IMG/VR virus record: IMGVR_UViG_3300044797_000318
Location: 74,672 to 138,671 of that record
Source: a virus
Direction: 5' to 3' (one strand)
DNA length: 64,000 nucleotides
This document shows, piece after piece, positions 17,665 to 41,431 of the stretch. Numbering within the stretch: the first letter of the stretch is position 1; each line of letters begins with the position of its first letter. The position numbers and the translations under genes were made by a program. The notes beneath the pieces were generated by a model, which was not told where the DNA came from, made no database searches, and saw only the letters and a program-made list of their open reading frames with translations.

Positions 17665-17994
17665 CTAAAGGAACGCTTTATTGTTAATGGCCTTTTCCAC
17701 TTCATCCAAAGTCTCAAATCGATGTCCATCTAAAAGAAAACCATTCTCATCATAACTCAAAGTTTTTTGGAACTGGGTCAACAAAAACTCATACCTCTTA
17801 CGCAAAACAAGATAATCAAAATCTTGATCAATCGCCTCTCTAAAATATGAGATATCCATATAATACCAAATATCATTGCTGATATTTGTATACAATGCAT
17901 AGAACGCAGAACCAATTTTAGATAGACTTCTATTCTGTGCGTAATGGTCTAAAACTTTATATTCTTCTTTGGGAAGAAGGGCTATCTTTTTCAT
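17665..17994 (-). CDS. Hypothetical protein ending ...KAINNKAFL
   Basis: Coupled ORF. Confidence 0.6.
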   Translation of the reverse strand: MKKIALLPKEEYKVLDHYAQNRSLSKIGSAFYALYTNISNDIWYYMDISYFREAIDQDFDYLVLRKRYEFLLTQFQKTLSYDENGFLLDGHRFETLDEVEKAINNKAFL

Positions 17995-18267
17995 TTAGTG
18001 AGGCCTTTTACCTTGTAAAAACTCTTCATAAGTAATAGCGGTGCCTGTCGGCCCAATACCAGTGGCTATAAAACTACCATTAGACAATCTTACCGTGTCT
18101 ATTCCAAAACGCTTTTTGAGCCCGGTAAAAGGGACATACTCAATTTCACGATGACCATTGCCCTTACAATTGAGACAGACAACACCCACTCCCTTAGGTT
18201 CCGCAAAACCACAGTAGATACCGGTGCCACCACAAGAAGAACATTCTGCTTTGACTACACTTTTCAT
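17995..18267 (-). CDS. DnaJ-type CxxCxGxG zinc-finger protein
   Basis: CSSCGGTG and CLNCKGNG. Confidence 0.7.
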   Translation of the reverse strand: MKSVVKAECSSCGGTGIYCGFAEPKGVGVVCLNCKGNGHREIEYVPFTGLKKRFGIDTVRLSNGSFIATGIGPTGTAITYEEFLQGKRPH

Positions 18268-18491
18268 TGAAATTTGACCTTGTCTTTAACTGAGAAATCA
18301 AAAATACGAGCTATATGAGCTTTAAATTCGTCGTATGACATATTACCCTTCATCCTATTACAGAGCCAACAACACGGAACCACATTATTTTTGTTGTGCG
18401 GAAAATTGTTATTTACCCTATCAAGTCCATTATAAGTAAAATAACCATCTCTTATTCTCTCCTCTTTATAGAATTCAAAATTGACGACAAA
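18264..18491 (-). pseudogene. 5'-truncated HNH homing endonuclease remnant
   Basis: Manual translation NGLDRVNNNFPHNKNNVVPCCWLCNRMKGNMSYDEF; no start codon before the motif; TGA overlaps the next ATG. Confidence 0.7.
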
Positions 18492-18494
18492 TTA

Positions 18495-19601
18495 TTATTT
18501 ATTGAATGTGACGCCTACACTCAAAGTTGTGAATAAGTCAAAAAATAATTTACATTGATAAAGTTTATGAATTTTTATTTGCTCAAAATCAAAGCTATTA
18601 TGGAGCCCCATCACTTGCATCTCCGTCTCTACTTTGTATTGATTGAAAAAATTGCACAAGTGTTCTAAATAAATAAATCTATTCTTGGACTTATCCGCGA
18701 ACACTTTCAGCTTGGCATGATAGCAAGCCGCTATCACGAAGACAATTTTTTCAGTAGGCACTAAGTCATCGAAGTTGAGGGACATCTGCCCGCGTTCAAT
18801 TAGGGAATGAACAAACGGCTCAAACTTACGATAGAACTCGTACCATAACTTGAACCTCAAACCAGCTTCGCTACCTACATAACCAGAAATAATTTGAGTG
18901 ACTGATTCGATATCAGGTATTTTGAGCTCTTTGGATTTGACCAAAGCCTGCGAGGCCCAAGTCCAACTACGAGGTGAGGGGGAGGCATAAGCGGTATCTT
19001 CTATGGAAGCGCAAGCAAATTGTGGATCGCTACGCAAAAATCCGATGATAAGATCGTGGACATTATTAGCTTTCGCCCAGTCAACCCAGCGTTCAAAATT
19101 GAAAGACAAAATATACTTAGCGCCCCTATCCAGTAAGGCAGAACTAAGTTGATTAGAGAAGGCTCCCTCATTGGGAAGGTTACCAGTCAGAATACAAGAG
19201 ATAGCATTGATAGGAACGCCATTGATTTTCTTGAATAATAAAATCTCCAATAGAGGGGCGGTCACTTCTGGCTGCACCTTATCTACTTCATCGAAAAGAA
19301 TGATGCTATCAGGTTTAGCATCACCTATTAGTTTGGGTAGAAAATGAGGAGACTTGAAATTGATAACATCCCCAGGAGAACTCATATCTGGATAGCCAGC
19401 CAAGTCGGGGCGTTCGATGACACTTAGATTTATATAATTGATTTTGAGCCTGCACTCTTTAGCGGCCTGAATTGCAATCTCTGTTTTACCCACACCTCTT
19501 TGCCCAAAAAGAAAACAGTTGTGCCCAGAACGAATGAAAAACTTAGTTAGATTGAGGGCTTGTTCTTGGTCGATCTCAGTTAAATTGAGGGCGTTGGGCA
19601 T
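18495..19601 (-). CDS. MoxR-like AAA+ ATPase, paralogue A
   Basis: GQRGVGKT Walker A, ILFDEVDK Walker B, LTGN, ALLDR, SPRSW. Confidence 0.88.
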   Translation of the reverse strand: MPNALNLTEIDQEQALNLTKFFIRSGHNCFLFGQRGVGKTEIAIQAAKECRLKINYINLSVIERPDLAGYPDMSSPGDVINFKSPHFLPKLIGDAKPDSIILFDEVDKVQPEVTAPLLEILLFKKINGVPINAISCILTGNLPNEGAFSNQLSSALLDRGAKYILSFNFERWVDWAKANNVHDLIIGFLRSDPQFACASIEDTAYASPSPRSWTWASQALVKSKELKIPDIESVTQIISGYVGSEAGLRFKLWYEFYRKFEPFVHSLIERGQMSLNFDDLVPTEKIVFVIAACYHAKLKVFADKSKNRFIYLEHLCNFFNQYKVETEMQVMGLHNSFDFEQIKIHKLYQCKLFFDLFTTLSVGVTFNK

Positions 19602-19644
19602 ATTTCCTTTGATATATCAAAAGGATATATATCCCAACTAACCA

Positions 19645-19872
19645 TTAGTTGAATAACGGTTTTTGCTCTTTTATCTCATTGACATATTCAGGAATATAAA
19701 AAACTGTCTCAAAAATCTGAATGGCAAACTGCGCTTCTTCGTTTCCGTCCAGTAGGGCTTGCTTTTTACATTCGCCCACTTCGTGATTGGCAGCCTCGGG
19801 AGAAATAGCTAATGATATGAGATGCCATTTGTTTTTTGGTCTGCTCTTGGTATAAATTCCATGAATCGTCAT
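19645..19872 (-). CDS. Hypothetical protein
   Basis: AAGGA SD; lies in gene run. Confidence 0.55.
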   Translation of the reverse strand: MTIHGIYTKSRPKNKWHLISLAISPEAANHEVGECKKQALLDGNEEAQFAIQIFETVFYIPEYVNEIKEQKPLFN

Positions 19873-19884
19873 ATAGTTCCTTTG

Positions 19885-20235
19885 TCAGACCGCGAAAGAT
19901 TTACCGCAGCCACAGGATGATTTTTCATTGGGATTGAGAAACTTGAAACCTCTTTTCAGGAGAGTTTGCTCCCAATCTAATGTGCACCCACTGAGATACA
20001 ATAAACTTTTGGGGTCTACAACAACATTGATGTCGTGGTATGAAAAGACTTTATCTGTCTCTTTGGGAGGCGCATCCTCAAACTGAATAACATAAGTAAA
20101 GCCTGAACATCCCCCACCTTTGAGACCCAATCTCAGATAAGCATAAGGAGTACCACGTTTTTCCAATTGTAGCTTAGCCTGCCCGGCCGCTTTGGGAGAC
20201 ACAAACACTTGTAATGTCTTTTCAGTTTCCATCAT
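19885..20235 (-). CDS. iscA: A-type Fe-S carrier protein (IscA/HesB)
   Basis: GGGCSGF and NPN...CGCGKSF. Confidence 0.93.
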   Translation of the reverse strand: MMETEKTLQVFVSPKAAGQAKLQLEKRGTPYAYLRLGLKGGGCSGFTYVIQFEDAPPKETDKVFSYHDINVVVDPKSLLYLSGCTLDWEQTLLKRGFKFLNPNEKSSCGCGKSFAV

Positions 20236-23051: not shown

Positions 23052-23546
23052 TTGGGGGAGGATACTTGCATGACTAATGACAAAGAAAAACTTTACGCTT
23101 ATTTAGCCGGGTTTATTGACGCGGATGGATCAATAACTATTGTTAATGCTAAATATAAAGATAAAAAAGGCATTACCAGAATACAGTATAGAATAAAATT
23201 GAGTGCCCATAATTGTAAAATACAACCTATTCAAGTTTTACAAAAAGAATTTGGTGGCGGTAAACTTCGTAATACAAGAAGGGGTAAAATAAAATTGCAC
23301 CCAAATTGGAGGAGTTGTTATGAGTGGATAATAACTAATCATATGGCGGCCAATGCTATCAAATCAATGTTGCCATACCTTATTGTAAAGAAAGAACAAG
23401 CTTTGTTGTGCCTTGAAATGGACAGACTCAAAACAGAAACTAATGCTGCAATTAGAAGGTGGAACCCAGAATTAGGAAAAAAGATTACGAATCAATTTAT
23501 CGAACTAAAAACCAAGATAAATGTATTGAATAAACGAGGTCAGTAA
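23052..23546 (+). CDS. Single-motif LAGLIDADG homing endonuclease
   Basis: YLAGFIDADG, LPYLIVKKEQA; opposite strand to its neighbours; probable start MTNDKE at 23070. Confidence 0.9.
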   Translation: MGEDTCMTNDKEKLYAYLAGFIDADGSITIVNAKYKDKKGITRIQYRIKLSAHNCKIQPIQVLQKEFGGGKLRNTRRGKIKLHPNWRSCYEWIITNHMAANAIKSMLPYLIVKKEQALLCLEMDRLKTETNAAIRRWNPELGKKITNQFIELKTKINVLNKRGQ

Positions 23547-23863
23547 GATACGGACTTACCACAGCCACAACTTCCTGTGATTTTCGGGTCTTTGATCTTG
23601 AAGCCGCCACCAAAATCAGTATCTACATAATCAATAACTGATTCATCTATATACTGAAAAGAAAACTCATCAACTATTACTTTGACACCATCTAACTCAA
23701 AAACCTGATCCATCTCACTAATTTGATCATCGAAAAAAAGATCGTGAGTGAAACCGCTACATCCACCGGCTAAAATCTTGACCCTGACAATGTAATGACC
23801 AACACCATCTCCGTTGGAGATTTGTTCAATCATTTTGGCGGCTTTTTCGGTAAGATGGATCAT
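23540..23863 (-). CDS. A-type Fe-S carrier protein (IscA/ErpA/HesB), second copy
   Basis: GGCSGF and SCGCGKS. Confidence 0.92.
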   Translation of the reverse strand: MIHLTEKAAKMIEQISNGDGVGHYIVRVKILAGGCSGFTHDLFFDDQISEMDQVFELDGVKVIVDEFSFQYIDESVIDYVDTDFGGGFKIKDPKITGSCGCGKSVSY

Positions 23864-23891: not shown

Positions 23892-24914
23892 TTACTCTAA
23901 CTCATCCTCGTAAGGATAATCTTCATTTTGACAGTTGCAGAACGCACCGGAGTAAATTATCTCTCCACAATAACTGCATTCATGTCTATCTTCGTCTTGA
24001 CACTCGCCAAGACAGTCGAGTTCATCACAATACTCACAGCTAGCTTCTTCATCTTGGCACTCTTCACAAAGACGATCGTCACCATAAACTTCCGCACCAC
24101 AATTCTCACACTCCTCTACTTCATCCTCGTCATTCAGATCGGAGTCGAATTGAGCTTGATTGATCACACGTAAAGCAACAGTGGGTTCGTAAGGCTGAGT
24201 TACCACGCCCAGAACTGTGTATCGACATACTCTCATCTTGGAATTATTATAGTCGGTGGGAATAGCCACCACATCGGCCGGATTGACTTCTACCTCCAAC
24301 ATTACATCGGTGTTAGGATTGGAGCTAACAAAGTGTGTGTGAGCATAGTCCCAGTTAGCTACATGCAGACCCTTACTACAAGTGCGGTTGGAATCTTCAT
24401 CTACTTCATTGCGATTGATGGACACAACATTTCCTACCGAGTTGTCAAAGGTATTAGAATGGATATCCTTGAAATTGTCTCGAACTCGTTTGTAAGCGAT
24501 GAAATTGCCGCTCTCTGTGATAGGGTGATCATTCTTCTCTAAGAATGTATATAGTTCCTGCACGGCTCGGAAAGAGGGGTTGTTGTTCAGGTTCTCAGCA
24601 AATCGAAGCAGAGGCTGAAAAGGCAAACCATCATTGGAGAAACGAATAATCTTATCGCTCAAAACCTGGGCAGCAGGAGAACCATTGACCTGTACCCGTC
24701 CATCGACTACTGTAAAAGCGCCCTTAGAAAAGGTCTCAATACGCTTGGCAGTAGAAACCAAACTAGGAATTTCACTTAGTCTGTTTTCTTTGAGAGCCTT
24801 GATAAGACGATCCCCCAAAGCATCGCTACGCTTGACGATATGCGTCTCATTATCATAATTGACAGTGATATTCTGATCTGTAATCAACCAACTTATTCTT
24901 TTTGACATCTTCAT
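23892..24914 (-). CDS. rIIB: rIIB-like protein with acidic Cys-rich C-terminal tail
   Basis: NPSFRAVQELY.FL, FIAYK, CSKGLHV, VNPADVVAIP.DY, MRVCRY; adjacent to rIIA. Confidence 0.88.
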   Translation of the reverse strand: MKMSKRISWLITDQNITVNYDNETHIVKRSDALGDRLIKALKENRLSEIPSLVSTAKRIETFSKGAFTVVDGRVQVNGSPAAQVLSDKIIRFSNDGLPFQPLLRFAENLNNNPSFRAVQELYTFLEKNDHPITESGNFIAYKRVRDNFKDIHSNTFDNSVGNVVSINRNEVDEDSNRTCSKGLHVANWDYAHTHFVSSNPNTDVMLEVEVNPADVVAIPTDYNNSKMRVCRYTVLGVVTQPYEPTVALRVINQAQFDSDLNDEDEVEECENCGAEVYGDDRLCEECQDEEASCEYCDELDCLGECQDEDRHECSYCGEIIYSGAFCNCQNEDYPYEDELE

Positions 24915-24921
24915 TCTCCTA

Positions 24922-27179: not shown

Positions 27180-27974
27180 TTGAAAATAACTGAGGATGTA
27201 ATGAGCGCAACCAAAGACGAACCTACCTTCATGTATTGCATCGAAAATATACTTAGTGGAAAATTATATATCGGATATTCAACAAGCCCCGATACTCGAT
27301 GGAGAGACCATCTGCGAACAGCTGTTGGTGGTAAAGAAAAATATCCTTCATACTCCTATATACATAAAGCTATCACCAAACACGGAAAAGAAAATTTCAT
27401 CTTTACTGTATTTGCTTGTTATCATAATGTGCAAGAAGCAAAAGAAGCTGAAAAATACTGGATAGCAGAATTGAAAAAACAATCTGTGCCACTATATAAT
27501 TTGACTAACGGTGGTGATGGTGCGGTAGGATATATACCAACAGAAATTACACGAAAAAGAATGAGTGTAGCACATACTGGCATAATGCATACAGAAGTAA
27601 GTAAAAAGAAAATGAGCAAAACAAGAAGAACAAAAAATTATAGTGGCGAACGTTCCTCTTTTTTCGGGAAACATCATACAGATGAAGCAAAGAAAAAAGT
27701 AAGTGAAGCAAATAAAGGAAACACAGCTTTTCTTGGCAAACAACATACTCAAAATACTATTGAGCTTATGAAATCCAATAGTAGGGGTGAGGGCAACAAT
27801 GCTGCGATAATCAATGAAGCCACAGTTATGGAAATACGCAATAAATATGCTACCGGCAACTATTCATACAAAAAGTTGGCGATTGAATATGGGTTGAAAA
27901 AACATCATGTTGGCGATATTATCAGGGGCACCATTTGGACACATTTACCAATCTATTATCAAAAGAATAGATAA
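27180..27974 (+). CDS. GIY-YIG homing endonuclease with NUMOD3 repeats
   Basis: FMYCIEN...YIG...RW..H, YNLT.GGDG, GKHHT and GKQHT repeats, C-terminal HTH. Confidence 0.9.
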   Translation: MKITEDVMSATKDEPTFMYCIENILSGKLYIGYSTSPDTRWRDHLRTAVGGKEKYPSYSYIHKAITKHGKENFIFTVFACYHNVQEAKEAEKYWIAELKKQSVPLYNLTNGGDGAVGYIPTEITRKRMSVAHTGIMHTEVSKKKMSKTRRTKNYSGERSSFFGKHHTDEAKKKVSEANKGNTAFLGKQHTQNTIELMKSNSRGEGNNAAIINEATVMEIRNKYATGNYSYKKLAIEYGLKKHHVGDIIRGTIWTHLPIYYQKNR

Positions 27975-28067: not shown

Positions 28068-28367
28068 TTAGCTGAAAACAATTAGAAGCCGTAATCTATC
28101 TCTGGTGATATTGAAAGGTGGATCGAAAGTTAGTTTCCTAAAAGTCGAGTCAATCCATCTCACTTCCGAAGGCCCCTCACTCGACCACCACACTTCACCT
28201 CCGTCAAAATAGCGTCTCAAAAAATAACGATTTCCATCGTCTAGAAAAGCTATTTGACATGTATCATAGTTGTCGCAACCAACTGCACCAAGCACCTTTT
28301 GTTTACTAAGATAACGGCCCCATCCACCTCCGCATAACGGGCAATACTGAGGCCTCTGTGTAAGCAT
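28068..28367 (-). CDS. Small Cys-containing protein ending ...RLRLLIVFS
   Basis: CPLC N-terminus; coupled to the VWA gene. Confidence 0.65.
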   Translation of the reverse strand: MLTQRPQYCPLCGGGWGRYLSKQKVLGAVGCDNYDTCQIAFLDDGNRYFLRRYFDGGEVWWSSEGPSEVRWIDSTFRKLTFDPPFNITRDRLRLLIVFS

Positions 28368-30103
28368 TACGCCCTCAGATCGAAAGCTCTACCAAATGGA
28401 GGGTTGAAAGCGCTGCCGCTGGTAATCAACCAAATGACGTCTATTCCGGGATGTTTCATTTCTGCTATGTCGGAATCCAAAAGAAATCCGTCCGAAACAA
28501 CAATCAGAAAATCGCATTTGCCAATGTGTTGTTCATAGTCAGTAAAGAACTCAGCATACTTAGTTCCACCGCGACCAACTACCTTGACTTTGGAAATTGA
28601 CTCGGCATCTGCTTTCTTGACCTTAGTAGCGTCTTCCCAATAAATATCAGCATCAGCTGGGACGATAGTGCCTTCCGAACGCTCATCCAAGGAAGTTAGT
28701 TGAGAGAGACCAAATGCCATATCGTCTTTGCTCATAGAACCCGAGGTATCCAGCAAACAACCGAAGTGAGCATAATAGTTTTTTCTCTTAGGCACCAAAA
28801 GACCGGAGAACATAGGTCGAGTCCTAAAACGAGTCCAATCATTGCGACCATTGCCAGCTCTTGCTCTGAGCAACCTAGTGCGGATAATATCCTGCCAAGT
28901 CACCTTGGGAGCAGTTAGTTTTCCAAGCTCATCTTCCAAAGCTGCTGGAACGTGGCCTGCTAATTTACGAGCCGCTTCCATTGCATCAGAAATTCTCTTG
29001 GCCAACTTCTCTTCCGATTCTTCAGAATCCATGTGATCATCCACTGTGCCACCCAGCCCAAAGATATCTACGCCACCTCCGCAGCTATCGCATGGCTGAT
29101 CGCCATTGCAGCTTTGACCTTGACCATTCCCAGGTTGTTGTCCATGTTGCCCTTGATCTCCACAATCACAAGGTTGATCACCGCCGTGATTATGTTGGTC
29201 TCCTGGCTTTTGCCCTTGACCATCTTGCTTGTCCTGACCATCTCCTGGCTGTGGTTTCTCGCCTTGTTGGCCTTGACCTTCTTGCTTATCTTGACTTTGT
29301 TTGTCCTGCTTGCCTTGTCCAGGTTGAGACTTAGATCCCTTCTTGTCGGGCTTCTTATATATTCCCAGGCGACCACACTTAGGGCACTTTGGTAGAAGCT
29401 TATAGAGAAGATCGTAAATCTTTTCTGGCCTCTTCATATCCTCTTCGAGAGCTGGATCTCCATAATAGAACTTGACACCCTTCTCTCGCTTTTCTAATAG
29501 CTTACGCTCAGCAGGAGTCAATTCACGATCCTCATTGGGAGCGGGTAATTCCACTTGCGGTGCGTTGGGGTCTTCAATAGTAGGATTGAGATCCTCAAAG
29601 CCCGGAATCTTAGCAAAGGGATCCTTGATTAGTTCACAGAAATTAGAAAGCGTCATATAGCGGCCCAAGTTCTTAGTGAACTCAACGGCCGGGTCTTTCT
29701 TACGAGTCTTGAAATCTTCCATCACTGTGCCATTGACAATATAGTCTACGGCAATATTCCACAGCTTTGGATTTCTAGATCCTCTTCTAGAAGGATGCAT
29801 ATAGAGGGCATGCCATGCTTCGTGTCCACAAACAATTCTTAGACCTTTGATAGAATGTTTGAGAACAAATTTGGGGTTCCAATAAAACCTCTTGCCATCG
29901 GTAGCGGCAGTGGGTATGTTCATGGTACAAACATGATCTACTGGATACATCAGTGAGAAGACCAATGGATCCCCTCCTAGGCCACTTCCCACATGCTCAT
30001 TGTCGTATCTAACTCCTAGCTCTAGGAAAACCTTCCCAAGTTTGGATTCAGCCTCAGCCACTAATTTCGCATCGATCTTACCGACTACTCTCGAGAACTT
30101 CAT
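28367..30103 (-). CDS. DUF2201-type metallopeptidase (HExxH) plus VWA domain protein
   Basis: TAATDG, HEAWH, WNIAVD, DTSGSM MIDAS, GRGGT, SDG; Q/G-rich linker. Confidence 0.9.
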   Translation of the reverse strand: MKFSRVVGKIDAKLVAEAESKLGKVFLELGVRYDNEHVGSGLGGDPLVFSLMYPVDHVCTMNIPTAATDGKRFYWNPKFVLKHSIKGLRIVCGHEAWHALYMHPSRRGSRNPKLWNIAVDYIVNGTVMEDFKTRKKDPAVEFTKNLGRYMTLSNFCELIKDPFAKIPGFEDLNPTIEDPNAPQVELPAPNEDRELTPAERKLLEKREKGVKFYYGDPALEEDMKRPEKIYDLLYKLLPKCPKCGRLGIYKKPDKKGSKSQPGQGKQDKQSQDKQEGQGQQGEKPQPGDGQDKQDGQGQKPGDQHNHGGDQPCDCGDQGQHGQQPGNGQGQSCNGDQPCDSCGGGVDIFGLGGTVDDHMDSEESEEKLAKRISDAMEAARKLAGHVPAALEDELGKLTAPKVTWQDIIRTRLLRARAGNGRNDWTRFRTRPMFSGLLVPKRKNYYAHFGCLLDTSGSMSKDDMAFGLSQLTSLDERSEGTIVPADADIYWEDATKVKKADAESISKVKVVGRGGTKYAEFFTDYEQHIGKCDFLIVVSDGFLLDSDIAEMKHPGIDVIWLITSGSAFNPPFGRAFDLRA

Positions 30104-31020
30104 ATGCGTGTCCTTATGGTTATGACATTATTATTGTATGGATCCGTGTCTTTGACAATGGAACCATCGTCAAGGTAAGGTTGAAGAAACTTGTTAAGCA
30201 TCTTGTAATCTGTCTTTCCGTTATACTCAAGACCTAGTTCTCGGGCTAATACTTTCATTGTAATTGGTAGGCGATCCCTGATAATTTTGTCAATAATAGC
30301 TTTTCTTTTGCTAGCTAACTGACCGATATTTGTTTGCCTCTTTGGCTGGTCCGTGTAAAATCTGCTCTCGGGCTTGTCCCAAATCCTTTTGCGACCCATC
30401 TTGAAGAAGACATCAATATCAGCAAACATGGCTCGACAACCACTATCATAAACCTTGATGATGTAGTAGGTTTTTCCTTTCCTATGTTTGGGTCTGACCA
30501 AAAAATTTTCTTGGTATCTTTCATTGAGAAGACTAGCTAAATACTGAACCTCCTCTTGGGAAAAACCGTGAGTAGAGATCTCGGTCCTCAGCCTATATGG
30601 CAATTTATTGTAGTCTATACTGCCATCATCAGCAAGCCAGTGTGCAATGATTTGAGCATTCAATTCAACAACTGACGGAACTACCTTTTTATATGTGCCT
30701 TCTATAGGTTTATACCAAAGCGTATGATACGCGGTAAGCGAAGGAGAAGCAACCGTAACAAAACTACAGCCAGCCCTAGCTGCACCAGTCCTTTTATCCA
30801 CCGATCTGTTGTAGTATATTTGCCCATTCTGGTGGGCTGGTGGAAGAAAATTGTCGAAAATACTCATTTCATAACGAAGATACTCTTCGTCTTTGACGGC
30901 ACGACCCACCATCAATTTGGCATTGATGTTATTTGCTGCTATCGACAAATGTCCGTCCCCCAGCATTAGGCCAGTAAGAGCGTTATGTTGTTCTTGTGTT
31001 AGCGGAACAAAATTGTGCAT
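30100..31020 (-). CDS. LAGLIDADG_2 homing endonuclease
   Basis: GLMLGDG and AHWLADDG motifs; inserted between the AAA and VWA genes. Confidence 0.88.
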   Translation of the reverse strand: MHNFVPLTQEQHNALTGLMLGDGHLSIAANNINAKLMVGRAVKDEEYLRYEMSIFDNFLPPAHQNGQIYYNRSVDKRTGAARAGCSFVTVASPSLTAYHTLWYKPIEGTYKKVVPSVVELNAQIIAHWLADDGSIDYNKLPYRLRTEISTHGFSQEEVQYLASLLNERYQENFLVRPKHRKGKTYYIIKVYDSGCRAMFADIDVFFKMGRKRIWDKPESRFYTDQPKRQTNIGQLASKRKAIIDKIIRDRLPITMKVLARELGLEYNGKTDYKMLNKFLQPYLDDGSIVKDTDPYNNNVITIRTRI

Positions 31021-31033
31021 ACTATTCCATATA

Positions 31034-32173
31034 TCATTGATCTACTTCTTTATTGATCCTGCCCAATACCTGAGACCAATCGGGGTGCTCGTCGAGATTG
31101 TGTTTGACTAAACGCTCAATCTGAATTTGACTTCTAACAGCCACTAGCACATTTTCATGGGCCACCTTATTCAAGAACTTACCCACATATTTGACAGATG
31201 GTGGGAGTTCCCCCTCCGTTTGATCTAATTGAGTGGCAAAGCGAGCACAAGCAATCATGCAAGCCACTAATCTCTTAGAGGGCTCCAAGGTAGCATATTG
31301 TGAGGAAATATCCTTGCCGGCATACATACTTTCCACCATAGGTAAGAGCTCCATGTAATGCTCGTAGTAATGCGAGTATTGCATACCAGCCTGTTTACCT
31401 ACGCAGCCACATACTTTCTTGTTGAGCAAGTAGTGGTTCCATCCAAATGCCTCTCCCTTGAAGAGAATTTGAGAAGCACGATCCCAACCACGAGGAGATG
31501 GGTCTGCATATCTATCATCAGGGTCTACATCTCCAAACAAATCCTTGGGATGATCATTGATGTAAGCAGAAACGGAAGGATGAATGCGGCCTGACTTACC
31601 AGCCCAATCCAACCAAGAGTGAACGTCAGCTTCCACCAAGAATTTTTCCGCTCTATCGAGAAGAGGTAAACTGGGACGAGAGCCACCCTCCGAAATCAAA
31701 TTACCCGTCATAATGATTGCTTGCAGTTTCGGTAATTGCTTAGAGTTGATGCTTCTAAACTGAGTGAATTCTAGCAAGGGAGCCCACAAGCTTGGGTCAG
31801 CCTTATCCACTTCATCCAAAAGGGCTACTACTGGCTTATTGCCATCAATCATTTGTTCGTAAAAATGAGGGAGTAAAAAGTCAACATATTTCTTTTGTTG
31901 AGCCGAGGCCATAATATTTGGATATCCACCCAAGTCTACTCTTTCCATAACGGATAAGTTGATGTAGACTTCTTGCATATCAGCTTTTCTAATTTCGTGC
32001 TTGGCAATTTCTGTCTTGCCAGTGCCTCTCCTTCCAAAGACAGCAATGTTACCACCCATTTTGATAGAGGCGGTAAAATGTTCTGATAAATCTTTGGTGT
32101 TGAGTTTTTCTAGATTGAAATCTGAGGAGGTTAGGGTCGGTGTTTTAGTTGGCATGTAAATCCTTCCTTGCAA
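31034..32173 (-). CDS. MoxR-like AAA+ ATPase, paralogue B
   Basis: GRRGTGKT, LLDEVDK, MTGN, PLLDR, SPRGW. Confidence 0.88.
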   Translation of the reverse strand: MQGRIYMPTKTPTLTSSDFNLEKLNTKDLSEHFTASIKMGGNIAVFGRRGTGKTEIAKHEIRKADMQEVYINLSVMERVDLGGYPNIMASAQQKKYVDFLLPHFYEQMIDGNKPVVALLDEVDKADPSLWAPLLEFTQFRSINSKQLPKLQAIIMTGNLISEGGSRPSLPLLDRAEKFLVEADVHSWLDWAGKSGRIHPSVSAYINDHPKDLFGDVDPDDRYADPSPRGWDRASQILFKGEAFGWNHYLLNKKVCGCVGKQAGMQYSHYYEHYMELLPMVESMYAGKDISSQYATLEPSKRLVACMIACARFATQLDQTEGELPPSVKYVGKFLNKVAHENVLVAVRSQIQIERLVKHNLDEHPDWSQVLGRINKEVDQ

Positions 32174-32272: not shown

Positions 32273-32644
32273 TCAAGAAAATACGAGATAAATTTTGAGT
32301 TTATTATATAATTTATTTTTGTCGGAAAAATCTATTGTAAAATATGGAATAGTGGTAATAAACCATCTATGTTGATCAAAAATAGAAAAATTACATAAAT
32401 TATAATTATAAGATATAAAACAATCATTACAACTAAAAGCAAAACCAGTATGCTTGGTCTCTCCGATACTATTCTGAGAATAATAAATTAGAAACCTTTC
32501 TTCACAAAAACGACAAGTCAAAGCCTCTACATCCGATCTTGTTCCATTTGCAAGATCTGACGAGCTTGTATGAGAGAAATCAATATCTCCTTCACAATAA
32601 AGGCATCTAGGGTTATCCATATTAATCAGCTCATGCATCATCAA
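32273..32644 (-). CDS. Zn-finger-like protein ending ...KLKIYLVFS
   Basis: CLYC...CRFC. Confidence 0.65.
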   Translation of the reverse strand: MMMHELINMDNPRCLYCEGDIDFSHTSSSDLANGTRSDVEALTCRFCEERFLIYYSQNSIGETKHTGFAFSCNDCFISYNYNLCNFSIFDQHRWFITTIPYFTIDFSDKNKLYNKLKIYLVFS

Positions 32645-32946
32645 TTTTGATCTTTCTCGGGCTCAAACTCTAATGTTCCGTCCACAAAGCGATCATATAT
32701 TTCTTGATGAATACTCCACGGATCTTTCCGCCCAAATGATAAAGCACCACCAGTATACATCATCCTTCCGATAAGAACTTCATCACATCGCAACTCTGTT
32801 AGCTTATCGCATAAATATTGGCCTGCATAACATACCTCTCGAATAATAGGGTTTTGCGCCAAATTGACTGGCATTTTTGGATCATTATCAATTTTTTCTG
32901 ACCAACGAAGAATATCTTCGTTCGTCACTGAATTAGGTCTTGGCAT
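32641..32946 (-). CDS. Hypothetical protein
   Basis: AAGGA SD; coupled. Confidence 0.6.
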   Translation of the reverse strand: MPRPNSVTNEDILRWSEKIDNDPKMPVNLAQNPIIREVCYAGQYLCDKLTELRCDEVLIGRMMYTGGALSFGRKDPWSIHQEIYDRFVDGTLEFEPEKDQN

Positions 32947-33579: not shown

Positions 33580-33654
33580 TGGTATCCCCAACTGGAATCG
33601 AACCAGTACTGTTTGTTTCGAAGACAAACGTGATATCCGTTTCACTATGGAGAC
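33580..33654 (-). tRNA. tRNA-Arg(UCG)
   Basis: Cloverleaf GTCTCCA/TGGGGAT, anticodon loop CTTCGAA, TTCGATT, encoded CCA. Confidence 0.93.
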
Positions 33655-33665
33655 ATATACTTACT

Positions 33666-33750
33666 TGGTGCGCCTGGTAGGAGTCGAACCTACTATGGGT
33701 TTCCCCGCTTGTTTCGTAGACAAGGGCCTTATCCGTTAGACTACAGGCGC
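33666..33750 (-). tRNA. tRNA-Arg(ACG) with long variable arm
   Basis: GCGCCTG/CAGGCGC, loop CTACGAA, variable arm GGG-GAAA-CCC, CCA. Confidence 0.9.
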
Positions 33751-33761
33751 ATTTTCTTACT

Positions 33762-33840
33762 TGGTATTCCCGGTCCGATTCGAACGGACATCGATCCAAT
33801 TACGGTGCTCAGAGGTAGAAGCTCTGTCCGATACGGGAAC
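33762..33840 (-). tRNA. Atypical tRNA-Arg(UCU) lacking a canonical D-arm
   Basis: GTTCCCG/CGGGAAT acceptor, CAGAG-CTTCTAC-CTCTG, perfect T-arm, CCA; only 7 nt at the D-arm position. Confidence 0.8.
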
Positions 33841-33849
33841 ATACTTACT

Positions 33850-33924
33850 TGGTGATCCTAATGAGGGTCGAACTCATTCCTGAACCTTGAGAGGGTTCCG
33901 ACCTAGCCGGTAGTCGATAGGACC
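33850..33924 (-). tRNA. tRNA-Glu(CUC)
   Basis: GGTCCTA/TAGGATC, loop CTCTCAA, CCA. Confidence 0.93.
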
Positions 33925-33969
33925 ATCGTGTATATTATATCACGATATTAGTTGATCTAAAATCAATTA

Positions 33970-34452
33970 TTAGGGTCTGCCGTCTTCACAACCTGCCTTG
34001 TCGGACGGACAATACATAGTTTGCAGAGTTTCGGGCTCTACCAACATAACACAATAGTTGAGGGAAGAACCGCATCTTTTCAGGGCCGATCTTTCTTTAC
34101 CAGTAAAAGCGGCATAATTGATGCTGGTACCACCCGCTTGCAGTGGGCCGGAACAAACTTGACGGCTTTGCGCAATAGGTAGTCCGCCTTCCTCAGCATA
34201 GAAGGTTATACGAACGCAAGAGTTAGCGGTGCTTTTCCCAGCAATAGCCGGCCATTGATTGATAAAACCACAACGAACCCACACTAACTTGTCATTGACT
34301 TCTTCATCTGTGCAAGACCAAGAGTTGACGCCATTAGTGCCTCGAGCTACAAACATAGTTCGATGTTGTGGATTTTCAATAGCAGTCGGTGCTTGCCGCG
34401 TTTGAGCGCCACAACCTGCCAACAATAGAAGTGTGAATAATAGATATTTCAT
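33970..34452 (-). CDS. Predicted lipoprotein
   Basis: Signal peptide with LAGC lipobox; several Cys. Confidence 0.75.
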   Translation of the reverse strand: MKYLLFTLLLLAGCGAQTRQAPTAIENPQHRTMFVARGTNGVNSWSCTDEEVNDKLVWVRCGFINQWPAIAGKSTANSCVRITFYAEEGGLPIAQSRQVCSGPLQAGGTSINYAAFTGKERSALKRCGSSLNYCVMLVEPETLQTMYCPSDKAGCEDGRP

Positions 34453-34526
34453 GATCTTACCTTATAAAAAAGAAAATTATTGAACCCAGTTCAGCGTGTG
34501 TTATATTGCACAGCAGAGGTTCAATT

Positions 34527-35213
34527 ATGAAAAACATAGAACAGTGTAAAGCCAAAGAATTACGAAGTCAAGGAATGTCCATCAAGACAATTGCCAAAGA
34601 ATTAGGTGTGTCAGCCGGCTCGGTTAGCGTATGGGTGAGAGATATCGAATTATCGCCGGAACAAATTGAAACCCTCAAATCACAGAACGCCATTTACGAT
34701 AATCAACATAAAGGAGCCAAGGCTCGTCAATTACAAGCTAGACAACAAAGATTACGATATCAGGAAGAGGGCAGAATAAAAGCGAGAGAAAAAGATCCGC
34801 TACATATGGCAGGATGTATGTTGTATTAGGCAGAAGGGTCCAAGAAAAGAGTAAGTTGTGAATTTTCTAATTCAGAACCGCATATGCTAAAAATGTTTTT
34901 ACAATTTCTATATCAGTGTTATGGTATAACCAAAGAACAAATAAAAATACATATAAATTGCTATACAACCAACGGTATTAGTGTAGAGGAGATAGAAAAA
35001 TATTGGGCAGACAATCTAGATATTCCTAAAAGTTGTTTTGGCAAAACCACTACCGATAACCTATCAAAATATTCTTTACAAAAGAAAGCTAAAAACAAAC
35101 TTCTATATGGAACTGTAAAAATCAAAGTTTTCAAAAGTGTATGGCTCGTCCAAAATATATTTGGAGCTATTCAAGAATATGCTAATTTCAATTCAGAATA
35201 TTGTGTTGATTGA
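34527..35213 (+). pseudogene. HTH + LAGLIDADG-like protein (LYWxEGxK type) interrupted by an in-frame TAG at 34827-34829
   Basis: Two listed ORFs are in one frame: ...GCMLY*AEGSKKR..FSNSEP..MLKMFL; TAG sits at the expected Trp (TGG) position. Confidence 0.75.
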
Positions 35214-35217
35214 TATT

Positions 35218-35291
35218 TGGTGACCCGTAACGGTTACGATCCGATGTTCAAGAGTTGAAAACACTTTGTCCTACCATTAGACGAACGGGCC
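35218..35291 (-). tRNA. tRNA-Glu(UUC), atypical T-loop
   Basis: GGCCCGT/ACGGGTC, loop TTTTCAA, T-loop ATCGTAA, CCA. Confidence 0.85.
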
Positions 35292-35295
35292 ATTA

Positions 35296-35372
35296 TGGGG
35301 TGTCGTACGAGTTTTGATCTCGTCAAAGAATGAGTCACAGTCATCCGGGTTCGCCAGCTCCCTCACGACACC
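35296..35372 (-). tRNA. tRNA-His(GUG) with encoded G-1, atypical T-loop
   Basis: G-GTGTCGT/ACGACAC-C-CCA, loop CTGTGAC, T-loop ATCAAAA. Confidence 0.88.
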
Positions 35373-35429
35373 ATATGGTAATATTATTGCTTACTTATTA
35401 GTATATATCATCCTAACCACAGAGGTTTC

Positions 35430-36644
35430 ATGCCTTACACCGCAGAACAATTGCTAAAAATTAGCCATAACTATGAAAAGATAGGAACAAATTCTTTGGT
35501 GTCAAGTGCTAAGGGAAAAGAAAAGAAAAAATTAGACCCCCACGCCAAAGTTCGCAATAGAGGATATGTGTGCGTTCCAGCTGAAAAAGCACTTGATCAT
35601 AAGGATCATTTTCCGGCAAATGATGAAGCTCAGGCTCGTAATGCCTTAGCCCGTGTGCACCAATATAGCAGTGCCCCCTCGTGGTATAAGGGAAGTCTCA
35701 AAGGTTTGCAAGATTTAATTAGTCGTAAAGTACATTCTAAATATCCAGGCATCAGCAAAGATAAGAAATCTAAAAAATCTTCTGTGGAAATAAGTGACGT
35801 CTTGTTGAACAAATATTCACAAACGGCTACCCCCACTGTCAATGTAGAAGATTTACCTAAGGCTTCTGCCCCGACCAAAGCACAATATCCTACTATCGAC
35901 AAAACATTCCAAGTTATATTGGGTGTGGATCCCGATGGATCTTTGGGGCCGATCACTCAAAAAGCCTTGGATGCTTATAAAGCAAAAGTAAATCCTAATA
36001 ACCCTACTATGAATAATCAATTGGCATTCGAGTTTCTCAAAAGAGAGCCACAATACCAAACTAAACAACTTTTACCAGCCAACCAATCTTCGATAACTAA
36101 TGCTGCAACTCAATCTATTCAATTATTAGAGTCTATCGCCCAAGTATTTGCACGAGTTGGAAGCAACGGATTAGGCGAACAAGACAAGCAAATCATCAAC
36201 ACCTTTATCGAACAATATAGCGGATTGCGAGAACAATTGGGTAGAGAGCAGTTGAGCATCAAAGATACTGATCAAAACGCCTTCAATCAAGCCGAAGGCA
36301 CTCTTTTTCAAGCATATAAAATGATCAAAGAATTAGCTCAAATGTCGGGAATAGCTTGGGGAGGAAACTCTATTTCTAGAACTAATCGTACTGCCACCAG
36401 TGTAGATAATTTGATCGCTAAATACGCGTCAGTAAGCGAAATAACAAGTTTATTGAATAGATATGAAGGTACCGGAGCTTTTTTGAGAGACTTGGCCAAA
36501 GCACAGTTTGAATTGGTGGGATTGGACCAAAACCAGGAACCCGAAGAAAATTGGAAGACCGAATACGAAAGTTCCAAGAAGCTTCACGATATGATTATGG
36601 CATTTGCCGATCAAGTGGAAGCTGAAGAATCTAAGTATTGGTGA
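35430..36644 (+). CDS. Modular protein with a putative peptidoglycan-binding motif (possible virion protein)
   Basis: LGVDPDGSLGPITQKAL (DGxxGPxT); HFP...ARNALAR module. Confidence 0.6.
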   Translation: MPYTAEQLLKISHNYEKIGTNSLVSSAKGKEKKKLDPHAKVRNRGYVCVPAEKALDHKDHFPANDEAQARNALARVHQYSSAPSWYKGSLKGLQDLISRKVHSKYPGISKDKKSKKSSVEISDVLLNKYSQTATPTVNVEDLPKASAPTKAQYPTIDKTFQVILGVDPDGSLGPITQKALDAYKAKVNPNNPTMNNQLAFEFLKREPQYQTKQLLPANQSSITNAATQSIQLLESIAQVFARVGSNGLGEQDKQIINTFIEQYSGLREQLGREQLSIKDTDQNAFNQAEGTLFQAYKMIKELAQMSGIAWGGNSISRTNRTATSVDNLIAKYASVSEITSLLNRYEGTGAFLRDLAKAQFELVGLDQNQEPEENWKTEYESSKKLHDMIMAFADQVEAEESKYW

Positions 36645-36668
36645 TTGGGTAGGAATTGCACTTTCATT

Positions 36669-36750
36669 TGGTAGTGGTAGAGGGACTTGAACCCCCACGG
36701 TTTCCCGCTCGACCCTAAATCGAGTGCGTCTGCCATTCCGCCATACCACC
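36669..36750 (-). tRNA. tRNA-Leu(UAG)
   Basis: GGTGGTA/TACCACT, loop TTTAGGG, variable arm, CCA. Confidence 0.93.
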
Positions 36751-36752
36751 AT

Positions 36753-36836
36753 TGGTCTCATCGGAGAGAGTCGAACTCTCACACCTTTCGGCATATGCAC
36801 CTCAAGCATACGTGTCTGCCATTCCACCACGATGAG
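36753..36836 (-). tRNA. tRNA-Leu(GAG)
   Basis: CTCATCG/CGATGAG, loop TTGAGGT, variable arm, CCA. Confidence 0.93.
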
Positions 36837-36839
36837 CTG

Positions 36840-36916
36840 TGGTGCGCGAGATGGGAGTCGAACCCACAAAACTTATTTTTTGAGAATAATACGTATGCCT
36901 ATTCCGTCACCCGCGC
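36840..36916 (-). tRNA. tRNA-Leu(CAA) with short variable loop
   Basis: GCGCGGG/CTCGCGC, loop CTCAAAA, 5-nt variable region, CCA. Confidence 0.9.
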
Positions 36917-36936
36917 GCTCTAATATATCCTGTTAT

Positions 36937-37404
36937 TCACAGATGTTTTTTCTTTACATCATAGAACTTACTATAAAAATGATAGCTAGCATTATCCCAA
37001 GGCCCTATACAAAAAGTATCCTCTTTGACTATTTTTTGAGCGGCCTGAAAAATTTCGGAGGCAATTCCCCGTCTTCGATGTCCAGGCTCAATGAACACTT
37101 GAAATAAGTAGCCGTCTTGTTTTCTAAAAACGGAATCAAGAGAACCCTCAGTAAACTCAAAATTGCTATCTTCTTTGGATAAAAGACCCCATCCTACCAA
37201 ACTTCGGAAGCGATAGGCCAAAAACACTTTACAATCGAGATGGCGAGTTATGGCTTCTTTCAACATCCAATCTAATTCGTAATTGAGGCCCGAAGTAGGG
37301 CCAAGAGTCAATAAGCGAAGTTTTCCTATAAGATCTGGTTGGTTGGCCACTAAATTGAAATCTACAACTCGAATTGTTAGCGTCAACCAATTTATTAGGT
37401 TCAT
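36937..37404 (-). CDS. GNAT-family acetyltransferase
   Basis: VFIEPGHRRRGIAS acetyl-CoA motif, FY.K. Confidence 0.82.
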   Translation of the reverse strand: MNLINWLTLTIRVVDFNLVANQPDLIGKLRLLTLGPTSGLNYELDWMLKEAITRHLDCKVFLAYRFRSLVGWGLLSKEDSNFEFTEGSLDSVFRKQDGYLFQVFIEPGHRRRGIASEIFQAAQKIVKEDTFCIGPWDNASYHFYSKFYDVKKKHL

Positions 37405-37431
37405 AGCTTATATAATATGAATAAGAAGATT

Positions 37432-37515
37432 TGGTAGGAACGATCGGACTTGAACCGATAAACCCGAAGGCGAGCACTTTTAAGGAGCTTGTGTTTGCCA
37501 TTTCACCACGTTCCC
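37432..37515 (-). tRNA. tRNA-Leu(UAA)
   Basis: GGGAACG/CGTTCCT, loop CTTAAAA, variable arm, CCA. Confidence 0.92.
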
Positions 37516-39165: not shown

Positions 39166-39207
39166 TGAAAATCCTTATAATGTGAGGTTGAAAAATTCCT
39201 GAAAAAT

Positions 39208-39697
39208 CTAAACACGAAACGAAGAACCGTCAAGGCGGGGGTCAACAAAAATAATTTCACGACCCACATTTTTGGCGTATTCCACGCAGTTAGCTGTGCC
39301 GCCTTTCGATCCATCCCATACGGCAATCAATTTATCGCAATGGTCAACCATCCACTCATTACGAATTTGCATTTTATAAGCAGCATAACCGCCATCACTA
39401 ACAATAACTTCTTCGGAGGCTAGCTTGCGTAAAAGCCGATATGTTTTTTGACTGACCTCGGGCCACGCCATCTCTTGCCCCTCAAAAGGAATGCAAGCTA
39501 CTAATGGAATACGAAGTTTGAGGCAAACACTGGCAAAATATTGATCGGTACCTAAGGCCATACCCGACAAACATTTTTCGGGTTTCATTTCCAATAATAG
39601 CCTCTCAATTTCTCGGCAAATTTTATTATAGGTTGGATTAGGTAATTTGTATCCACCGATTTTTTGTCGGCCTGGATCCCGTGATTGCTATTATCAT
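39208..39697 (-). pseudogene. YspA/DUF1273 SLOG-family protein with a +1 frameshift in an A6 run
   Basis: MIIAITGSRPTK then IGGYKLPN in another frame...SGMALGTDQ...RNEWMVD...AVWDGSKGGT. Confidence 0.75.
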
Positions 39698-39969
39698 TTT
39701 TGTATGGTTACTTGTTCGTGTGCTTGCATCTCTTCCGCCTCAATCAATTGCATAAACTCATCGTGAATTTCTTGCGACTCGTTGTTGCGCTGAATGTAAA
39801 ACAGACCTACCGATTGCTCGCCTAACAAACCCAAGAACTCATACTTGACTTTGACCTTGCCAACAATAATGGTGTTGATAGCGGAGGCGAAACTAGCCAT
39901 TTCATCTTCACTTTGGAAGAGGTGAGCGGCTGGTAGATTGACTAATATTTCCTTGGGTTTGATTTTCAT
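39694..39969 (-). CDS. Hypothetical protein
   Basis: Likely start MKIKPKE after a GGAGG SD. Confidence 0.6.
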   Translation of the reverse strand: MKIKPKEILVNLPAAHLFQSEDEMASFASAINTIIVGKVKVKYEFLGLLGEQSVGLFYIQRNNESQEIHDEFMQLIEAEEMQAHEQVTIQK

Positions 39970-39970
39970 C

Positions 39971-40615
39971 TTACACCTCCACAACAACAGGCAAATTTTC
40001 TGGTTTATAATAATCGGTGCAGACAGCAGCATTGATAAACTTGACGCCATCTCGCTCAACCATTTTACCACCATCACGATGTAAGTGTCCAAAGATATGA
40101 ACTTTGAGATTAGTTAGTTGCGGCAATCTCTTGGCCAACAATTCACAACCCTGACTACCAGCTTGAATGGTGTCATCCAAGATACCATAAGGGGGACAAT
40201 GAGTAATCAAGATATTAGTGTCCTCGGGGATCATATCCCATTTTTGAGATAGTTCATCACCATTTCGTGGTAAGTTCCACTCCCAATCATGAAATGCCGG
40301 TTGCCAAGGAGAACCATAGAAGTAAAAATTATTTATTCTTGCACTCTTATCTTCAAGATAAAAAGATCCAGTATCATCAAACATTTGAAGGGCAATGTTT
40401 CTCTTTTGTTCATTACGAATGCCAAGCTCATGATTACCACAAACAATTATTTTATTCTTGTGTGGTAATTCTTTCCACCAATTACAAAAATCGGCAATAA
40501 TTTCTAATTCACCTCTCCAAGTAATATCGCCCGCATGAACCAAAATATCACCGTCAGGAACAATAATATTACGATGATATGAGTGTGTATCGGAGATTGC
40601 TACTATTGTTGTCAT
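39971..40615 (-). CDS. Metallophosphoesterase (MPPED/239FB-like)
   Basis: ISDTH, HAGD, GNHE, ITHCPP, FGHLH. Confidence 0.9.
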   Translation of the reverse strand: MTTIVAISDTHSYHRNIIVPDGDILVHAGDITWRGELEIIADFCNWWKELPHKNKIIVCGNHELGIRNEQKRNIALQMFDDTGSFYLEDKSARINNFYFYGSPWQPAFHDWEWNLPRNGDELSQKWDMIPEDTNILITHCPPYGILDDTIQAGSQGCELLAKRLPQLTNLKVHIFGHLHRDGGKMVERDGVKFINAAVCTDYYKPENLPVVVEV

Positions 40616-40815
40616 TCTAATTCCGTTTTTATTGAGATTCCATCTACTACTGGCGAAACAAGTTTTCTAATTTTATTATCTATTTGATGGGCCATCATAA
40701 CGATACCAAAACCGTCATCCGTAGAAATAACCACACTGGAACTATACCAAGCATATTGGGAATACTTCATCTTCAATTTCAGGCGAACTTGATTGGCTTC
40801 CTTGAAAGTAGACAT
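40612..40815 (-). CDS. Hypothetical protein
   Basis: AGGAG SD; coupled. Confidence 0.6.
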   Translation of the reverse strand: MSTFKEANQVRLKLKMKYSQYAWYSSSVVISTDDGFGIVMMAHQIDNKIRKLVSPVVDGISIKTELE

Positions 40816-40825
40816 AGCAGCTCCT

Positions 40826-41431
40826 TCAACTAAAAAGTATATAGGTTTTTATTTTATCTATCAGACTATCTTGATCAGAATAATCCCAAGTGGTTAGTGG
40901 CAACTTCAATACTAATTTTCGAGGGGTATAATCATCAAGTTTGTATATCACAGTAACATCTTGGAAAAAATCTAAAGTAATTTGATATTCAGGAATATCT
41001 CGCCGAAACAACGAGATACATTCTTGTTCTAACCCAGTATTGAATATATTTCCATTAACTGACTCAAACTCTACATCTAGGGTCGATACCCAAGTATGAT
41101 GACAATTTTGACAACTAGCATTGATCCAAAAATAAAAATAACGACTTGTGTCCTCATTTGGATTTATTGTTACACAATGATCGGGATACGGCCGATCTTT
41201 TATCTCAACTTGATACGTGTTATTATCACAGTTGATCTGATATATTGGTAAGCAATTTTTCTTTTTGTTTCGACATTGAATTGTTAGTAAGTGGTTTTCT
41301 TTTAGGAAACCAAGGCACTCAAAATTTGGATCAGGTCCCACCGATAAGTCTATGGTTCTAGTATCTTTTTGACACAGAGGACAAAATAAACAATGATCCC
41401 AAAGTTCTTGAAGTGTATTGAATATTTTCAT
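40826..41431 (-). CDS. Cys-rich protein ending ...KIKTYILFS
   Basis: CPLC...CQNC. Confidence 0.65.
   Translation of the reverse strand: MKIFNTLQELWDHCLFCPLCQKDTRTIDLSVGPDPNFECLGFLKENHLLTIQCRNKKKNCLPIYQINCDNNTYQVEIKDRPYPDHCVTINPNEDTSRYFYFWINASCQNCHHTWVSTLDVEFESVNGNIFNTGLEQECISLFRRDIPEYQITLDFFQDVTVIYKLDDYTPRKLVLKLPLTTWDYSDQDSLIDKIKTYILFS

Follow-up and report, generated by a model that had tools for sequence, protein, structure and literature searches.

The window analysed here is a stretch of 64,000 nucleotides that forms the last 64 kb (positions 74,672 to 138,671) of the 138,671-bp virus record IMGVR_UViG_3300044797_000318. Its minus strand encodes three small proteins with dissimilar bodies and nearly the same last nine residues, and two of these proteins adjoin an operon for a MoxR-like AAA+ ATPase and a metallopeptidase with a VWA domain. 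The three genes and the codons of their shared ending are as follows (positions are those of the window).

40826..41431, minus strand: long-class member, 201 amino acids (aa), ending DKIKTYILFS, with an N-terminal helix and CPxC and a second CxxC
40826..40855, minus strand: last nine codons and stop codon of the 201-aa protein
32273..32644, minus strand: short-class member, 122-123 aa, ending NKLKIYLVFS, with a CxxC...CxxC zinc ribbon
32273..32302, minus strand: last nine codons and stop codon of the 123-aa protein
28068..28367, minus strand: class-3 protein, 99 aa, ending DRLRLLIVFS, with an N-terminal CPLC
28068..28097, minus strand: last nine codons and stop codon of the 99-aa protein

The common ending of these three open reading frames (ORFs) had been reported in a first-pass annotation and was found at each of the three positions. 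Among the 207 genes called greedily over the whole record, the loose motif hhhFS (h, hydrophobic residue; x, any residue) closed 3 genes against 0.022 expected, while its internal occurrences (5 vs 4.6 expected) were at the level of chance; the strict motif [KR]h[KR]xhhhFS closed 3 genes against 0.0001 expected and never occurred internally. Because the excess is C-terminal and the internal counts are as expected, the FS-type ending is enriched specifically at C-termini, and no called gene of the record beyond these three ends in FS. A hidden Markov model (HMM) of the tail retrieved the 201-, 123-, and 99-aa proteins (E = 3e-12, 2e-11, and 0.011, respectively) and no other ORF of the whole genome at E < 0.05, so that three looser ends proposed earlier (at 17665, 22813, and 13309) are non-members. 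The N-terminal CxxC reported for all three was also seen, within about 30 residues of the start and after a short helix, as was the dissimilarity of the bodies.

At the DNA level the endings are unlike: the serine of the final FS is encoded by AGC, TCT, and AGT in the three genes, and the remaining tail codons differ as well. Strong selection therefore acts on the protein and not on a shared DNA element; such an element was ruled out on these grounds, as was gene conversion of the 3′ ends. A membrane tail anchor was rejected too, as the ending has only about five hydrophobic residues.

A diversifying family of small zinc-ribbon proteins

The three proteins had been described as unrelated, which did not hold for the two larger ones. 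BLASTP aligned the 201- and 123-aa proteins at E = 5e-6 with similarity over 31 residues rather than 9, and the 123- and 99-aa proteins at E = 0.03. An exhaustive profile search of 1.84 billion representatives returned 127 with E < 1e-3, of which 43 had E < 1e-10, and the match ran end to end in almost every case. These proteins form two size classes, one near 200 aa (with an N-terminus resembling MKIFNTLQELWDYCLFCPICQ) and one near 125 aa (with an N-terminus resembling MLHELIDREDPKCLYCNS). Aligned by hhalign, the long class (73 rows) and the short class (26 rows) matched with 97.6% probability (E = 2.9e-12) over 54 C-terminal columns. By these sequence comparisons the 201- and 123-aa proteins are members of a single family that is homologous both in its N-terminal part (helix plus CxxC) and in its C-terminal part (about 54 columns). 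Orthologues speak for descent of the ending over its transfer, since they hold the tail as their bodies drift and the codons differ among the paralogues: a word-indexed search found a 71% orthologue of the 201-aa protein (P0002), whose last 29 residues are identical, and a 44% orthologue of the 123-aa protein (P0005) that has retained the tail.

Conservation within the family is concentrated at the two ends, which fits a constant unit built from both. The N-terminal 20 and C-terminal 20-25 residues are the best conserved (2.9-3.3 bits per column vs means of 1.85 and 2.36), and the cysteines at 17 and 20 in the 73 long-class rows, and at 13 and 16 in the 26 short-class rows, are invariant. The C-terminal module has the consensus P(-24)...h-D(-19)-F-S-[DN]..K(-13)...K(-9)-[IL]-K(-7)-T-h-h-h-F-S; it is complete in the 201- and 123-aa proteins and shortened by 7 residues in the 99-aa protein, and both the profile search and the tail HMM placed it always at the extreme end of the protein. 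Among 132 family proteins, 110 end in FS, 13 have variant ends (LS three times, FG three times, FK twice, and FT, FY, FQ, FV, and LF once each), and 9 are N-terminal fragments without the module. The penultimate phenylalanine is present in 118 of the 122 full-length representatives, and none continues past the residue that follows it. The polar positions of the tail are likewise kept in the 110 sequences, with K/R at -9 in 109, K/R at -7 in 100, and T at -6 in 91.

The predicted structures place the ending within a domain. AlphaFold2 modelled the long class (predicted local distance difference test, pLDDT, 93.4; predicted template modelling score, pTM, 0.88) with a helix at residues 7-15, 13 strands, and a helix at 187-200, and the short class (pLDDT 93.9) with seven strands and a helix at 108-121. 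In both models the nine-residue "tag" is the second half of the terminal helix (block pLDDT 97/91 in the long class and 93/82 in the short class). Fold searches offered few leads. Foldseek against the PDB gave no match at E ≤ 1e-3; a wide VIA-align search gave for the long model a best Z of 6.0 (root-mean-square deviation, rmsd, 1.9 over 48 residues), which is noise level, and for the short model a best Z of 5.6 (rmsd 4.2 over 77 residues) to curved-sheet proteins such as LolA and nitrobindin, again a common level. Among predicted viral structures in BFVD there were 6 matches at E ≤ 1e-3, all to uncharacterised proteins from uncultured phages. A profile search of the sequences of solved structures with profiles A3, A8, and A6 (the last that of the VWA-peptidase) found nothing significant, and the ESM Atlas yielded no lead for the long-class protein or for the class-2 protein described below.

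Large relatives show how far the family can expand. A DNA pattern for the tail, run over viral contigs, retrieved further ORFs with new-looking bodies, all of which have the N-terminal CxxC and the P...helix end. Five large relatives (354 to 481 kb, of which four are 92-100% complete) gave 2, 4, 1, 1, and 9 matches to the pattern, and a reversed control gave 0; 16 of these 17 matches closed ORFs of at least 85 aa. Two near-complete relatives had seemed to lack tail proteins when searched with profile A2; this was a failure of sensitivity, and the DNA pattern recovered them. The largest repertoire lies in a complete relative of 480,838 bp, where positions 405,594-417,156 (L125, G008:C1) hold 24 tandem plus-strand genes that encode proteins of 107-213 aa and in most cases overlap at their stop and start codons. 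CxxC occurs within the first 30 residues in all 24, and F at -2 in 23; the endings are FS in 15 of the 24, FL in four, and FG, FA, FT, FI, and LS in one each. The family HMMs matched 16 of the 24 at E ≤ 1e-3, and when the last 12 residues were removed, BLASTP (1e-3) divided the array into 22 clusters. As almost all the array bodies are mutually unrecognisable by BLASTP, dissimilar bodies with one ending are the normal state of this family. A 146-aa gene whose product ends in ..RLDRLKAFL lies on the opposite strand inside the array.

The family appears to be undescribed in the libraries and literature searched. None of the three window proteins matched Pfam-A, PHROGs v4, or NCBIfam 20, and tblastn found none of them in 50,697 phage records; patterns of the long class confirmed no relative in 185,579 bacterial and archaeal species genomes. 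Full-text literature searches found no description of the family, though a sequence motif cannot be looked up in this way and an earlier description may exist.

A second ending, ..[KR]-x-[LN]-K-A-F-[WL], recurs on small proteins, two of them with zinc ribbons, and like the FS tail it combines a basic residue with a penultimate phenylalanine. It closes the gene at 17665-17994 of the window (minus strand; ..NNKAFL), those at positions 7899-8117, 63276-63500, and 68182-68370 of the record, outside the window, and, in relatives, L003:1286-2100 and L009:1387-2112. Nothing linked the ends of the ORFs at 22813 and 13309 to the FS tail or to another pattern.

Tail-bearing genes at the MoxR/VWA operon

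The short-class and class-3 genes flank an operon whose remaining genes are these.

32641..32946, minus strand: conserved gene of about 101 aa that opens the module and overlaps the start of the short-class gene
31034..32173, minus strand: MoxR-like AAA+ ATPase, 379 aa (phrog_1297, E = 5e-40; weak match to AAA_22)
30100..31020, minus strand: LAGLIDADG homing endonuclease between the AAA and VWA genes (PF03161, E = 2e-21)
28367..30103, minus strand: zincin-like metallopeptidase (HExxH) with a VWA domain, 578 aa (PF13203, E = 8e-25; PF09967, E = 7e-9)

It had been noted that two of the three tail proteins directly flank the AAA/VWA locus, and this was borne out: the 123-aa gene stands on the upstream side of the AAA gene, and the start of the 99-aa gene overlaps the stop codon of the VWA-peptidase gene. 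The association is also kept in relatives. A search with the short class led to 7 loci, and all 7 have the order [~101 aa][short class][AAA][VWA-peptidase]. Among 36 VWA loci, some of them near-duplicates, an FS-ending gene stood just upstream of the AAA gene in 12 and within two genes after the VWA gene in 11, with one or the other position occupied in 20. As the relatives were reached via the VWA gene or the family itself, the co-occurrence counts are not independent, and for relatives chosen through the VWA gene co-occurrence with that gene proves nothing. As the gene of about 101 aa is present without tail genes at some loci, the tail genes are facultative additions to a three-gene core. 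Its product had no match in Pfam, PHROGs, or NCBIfam. The LAGLIDADG gene is missing from the AAA-VWA interval in most relatives, and it is an insertion and no part of the operon system.

The peptidase and VWA motifs of the 578-aa protein are both conserved. In 30 sequences, residues H94, E95, H98, D452, S454, S456, T514, and D538 are invariant, and the metal-ion-dependent adhesion site (MIDAS) motif DxSxS...T...D is complete. Searched by tblastn against the 50,697 phage records, this protein had distant partial matches only, all below 60% identity. A MoxR/vWA pair with an N-terminal peptidase has been described in group 2.2 jumbo phages, with a proposed role in virion assembly and the processing of structural proteins (Iyer et al. 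2021, PMC7824862, in the portions drawn on here). The window resembles that arrangement in having the AAA gene followed by a HExxH peptidase joined to a VWA domain with an intact MIDAS; it differs in that those portions of the paper name no small accessory proteins, whereas here the 101-aa gene and up to three tail genes are conserved within the operon.

The slot after the VWA gene is held by more than one kind of protein. The 99-aa protein has the orthologues P0004, P0006, and L014:6688-6999. When the last 12 residues were removed from the 145 distinct FS-ending proteins, BLASTP grouped them into one cluster of 129 (long and short classes together), one of 8, one of 4, and four singletons; the 99-aa type of the window makes up the cluster of 4, and that of 8 consists of a protein of 145-188 aa (class 2) whose gene overlaps the VWA stop codon and thus uses the same slot as the window's 99-aa gene. 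The slot is also filled in L014 and L024. In all 8 class-2 sequences the ending P-[KR]-[LI]-K-[LT]-Y-x-[LV]-F-S is conserved; their body, which appears from its sequence to be helical, matched neither Pfam nor NCBIfam, the two libraries scanned for it.

Further genes lie around the module. Genes resembling rIIA and rIIB (23892-27009, minus strand) follow directly downstream of it, here and in most relatives. Conserved gene orders are also interrupted by homing-endonuclease-type genes at 23052-23546 and 27180-27974 (both plus strand), judged by sequence only. A second MoxR-like AAA+ gene (18495-19601, minus strand; phrog_1297, E = 6e-43) is without a VWA partner; it is followed by a gene for a 90-aa protein with CxxCxGxG-like zinc-finger motifs (17995-18267, minus strand), and then by that for the ..NKAFL protein.

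Possible roles of the shared ending

The most likely reading, to which we give slightly better than even weight, is that of a diversifying zinc-ribbon family whose ending is inherited and part of the fold, with two lineages recruited to the MoxR/VWA operon. The 201-, 123-, and 99-aa proteins would then be paralogues in one phage-restricted, rapidly diversifying family of small zinc-ribbon proteins built from two constant parts, namely an N-terminal short helix followed by CxxC, and a C-terminal strand, a turn "h-D-F-S-D", and a 14-residue helix that ends in K-h-K-T-h-h-h-F-S. Between them would lie a beta-rich body that varies in length (the whole protein having about 100 to 210 aa) and, beyond recognition, in sequence. 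Since the ending is the end of the family's modelled terminal helix, the shared "tag" would be mainly inherited, and not a peptide pasted onto unrelated proteins. The two conserved termini may form one constant face and the variable sheet a specificity surface. Two lineages would have become fixed in the operon, the short class upstream of the AAA gene and the 99-aa class translationally coupled to the VWA gene, giving the order [101-aa gene]-[short class]-[MoxR-like AAA]-[metallopeptidase-VWA]-[class 3]. There they might act as accessory factors (specificity factors, cofactors, or clients) of the chaperone/protease. The long class has its place elsewhere, beside a 67-aa gene and a metallophosphoesterase gene.

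Several points weigh against this interpretation. That the terminal helix is buried in the domain, like any binding by these proteins and any function of theirs, is something that we infer, and burial is read from pLDDT alone. The 99-aa class aligned to the family with hhalign probabilities of just 10% and 6%, which is weak; one of these alignments covers 86 columns, starting at the CxxC, reaching the end, and keeping in register with the long class's second half. The 99-aa protein would probably be a minimal member that has diverged strongly. Some FS endings stand on bodies that could not be linked to the family at all, for example that of the 145-188-aa class, which does not align to it (hhalign 44% over the last 16 columns only). 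The class alignments took FS-ending rows, without the 13 variants or any fragments, and this choice in itself fixes their last two columns. The genes at the loci are our own greedy ORF calls. Finally, the conservation of all nine tail positions with no extension beyond them exceeds what a core helix would normally need, and points to a partner.

Such a partner is central to the main rival, which we regard as possible though not probable: the ending, with its basic-x-basic start, hydrophobic run, penultimate phenylalanine, and free carboxylate, would be a C-terminal docking motif that joins many variable small proteins to one hub, encoded by the phage or by its host. Candidate hubs are the MoxR-like AAA/VWA-metallopeptidase (where the tail might enter the metal site of the VWA domain, for instance, or the groove of the peptidase), the HslV-like protease, and the phage's ClpP pair with an unfoldase. 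An unlinked 145-188-aa body with the same 9-mer in 8 of 8 sequences keeps this idea alive, the more so as that protein shares the slot of the window's 99-aa gene over the VWA stop codon and three body classes gather at the operon. The tail is also the only recognisable similarity for most members of the 24-gene array, its polar positions are kept, and the protein always ends one residue past F. FS is the commonest ending in the related loci (35 of 885 distinct proteins; the next has 17), and the pattern recurs in the five large relatives and not in the reversed control. The intact MIDAS motif and the many proteostasis genes encoded by the phage would suit a hub as well. Against docking, AlphaFold2 gives an ordered domain helix instead of a free peptide, array members differ in their final residue (FL, FG, FA, FT, FI), and neither the long class nor the array adjoins a hub. 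The HslV-like gene (51176-51739; phrog_1040, E = 2e-18) is present in 4 of the 5 large relatives with tail proteins but missing from one that is 97% complete, and co-occurrence with the VWA gene is uninformative for the reason given above.

Docking tails of this general kind are known for partners of AAA+ machines: the HslU tail inserts into HslV, proteasome activators carry the HbYX motif, and the C-terminal peptide of SspB binds ClpX. The FS ending is like them in being a short hydrophobic C-terminal peptide with a penultimate aromatic residue and a free carboxylate, and SspB is moreover an adaptor with a separate substrate-binding body. It is unlike them in having Phe and not Tyr at the penultimate position, in being predicted as a folded helix, and in standing on small proteins and not on the ATPase. 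An HbYX/HslU-type motif, commonly defined by Tyr on a flexible tail, was accordingly rejected for an ending with Phe in 118/122 and a tail predicted as helical and ordered. A degradation tag like ssrA was set aside as well, as the ending is h-F-S after K-x-K in a predicted helix, as opposed to L-A-A on an unstructured tail.

A bolder form of the docking idea, which we consider rather doubtful, is that K-h-K-x-h-h-h-F-x-COOH is a phage docking code joining hypervariable zinc-ribbon adaptors to a remodelling or proteolysis machine, most plausibly the MoxR-like AAA/VWA-metallopeptidase and otherwise the HslV-like or ClpP proteases. This fragment would then contribute three adaptors to the repertoire, and the complete relative no fewer than 24. 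Poxviruses have ankyrin/PRANC (F-box-like) families, whose members bind targets through a variable part and use a short, constant C-terminus to dock into a degradation machine. They offer an analogy only, since their folds and the domains of life concerned differ from those of the phage family. If such a code were real, it would reveal how a phage can direct a single machine against many targets, would amount to a programmable capture, remodelling, or destruction of many host proteins by huge phages, and would be the bacterial-virus counterpart of the viral F-box-like adaptor families. If the ending is merely a structural helix, the result would be an ordinary, though large, new family.

A second rival, which we think quite unlikely, holds that these are zinc-ribbon nucleic-acid binders (transcription factors or DNA/RNA binders) whose helix lysines sit on phosphate and which need no protein hub. 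The lysines at -13, -9, and -7 of the terminal helix are conserved as this would suggest, and there is weak partial similarity to Pur-alpha repeats (Z 5.5 over 47 residues and Z 5.2 over 39 residues). There is also a precedent in Bacillus phage G, for which an expansion of zinc ribbons to about 35 copies has been described, with proposed roles as transcription factors or structural DNA-binding proteins (Iyer et al. 2021, PMC7824862). The two sets are alike in being many small zinc-ribbon paralogues, of function not known, in a very large phage genome. As far as the relevant portions of that paper describe the phage G proteins, they differ from ours, which have a conserved C-terminal F-S helix, at least two size classes, overlapping genes in tandem arrays, and members with fixed places in the MoxR/VWA operon. 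Nucleic-acid binding is further disfavoured by fold matches at noise level (the best being that of Z 6.0 over 48 residues), by the lack of a helix-turn-helix or other known DNA-binding family in the library scans, and by its leaving the fixed AAA/VWA operon positions and the hydrophobic F-x end unexplained. That chance or spurious ORFs lie behind the shared endings is extremely improbable, for apart from the small size of the ORFs nothing favours it, and it is contradicted by 3 endings seen where 0.0001-0.02 are expected, by the orthologues and the 127 family representatives, by the confident fold predictions, and by the empty reversed-pattern control in five genomes.

The family is of interest in several ways. 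Huge phages have many genes of unknown function, and the zinc-ribbon family is one expanded, fast-evolving set among these, with 127 representatives. The role of the MoxR/VWA-metallopeptidase module in jumbo phages is itself only guessed at, and family members, being built into the operon, provide that machine with its first candidate clients or specificity factors. Their near-invariant ending offers a simple experimental handle.

The long-class locus and other genes of the record

The long-class gene is followed by two genes, also on the minus strand.

40612..40815, minus strand: 67-aa gene after the long-class gene
39971..40615, minus strand: calcineurin-like metallophosphoesterase (PF00149, E = 8e-13)

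The long-class loci of relatives were searched with a 12-row alignment. The 67-aa gene, whose product had no family match in Pfam, PHROGs, or NCBIfam, was one of the two genes after the long-class gene at all 10 loci with downstream sequence, and the metallophosphoesterase gene was usually the next after it. Around the long-class gene lies an ADP-ribose/NAD set of genes, for a SLOG (YpsA-like) protein, a NADAR protein, and a PARP-like protein with WGR and regulatory domains (39208-39594, 43103-43534, and 44656-46155), and the same neighbours occur in relatives.

The record is also unusually rich in genes for proteostasis and translation. Outside the window it encodes a full-length DnaJ, trigger factor, two ClpP paralogues, and a further AAA protein, together with peptide deformylase, IF3, PTH2, NifU, and quinolinate synthase. 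Two iron-sulphur assembly proteins of the IscA/HesB type (PF01521) are encoded within the window at 19885-20235 and 23540-23863 (both minus strand), in addition to the NifU-like gene elsewhere in the record. Eight tRNA genes (Arg twice, Glu, His, and Leu four times) lie at 33580-37515 on the minus strand, and many of the ORFs listed in that interval are probably spurious.

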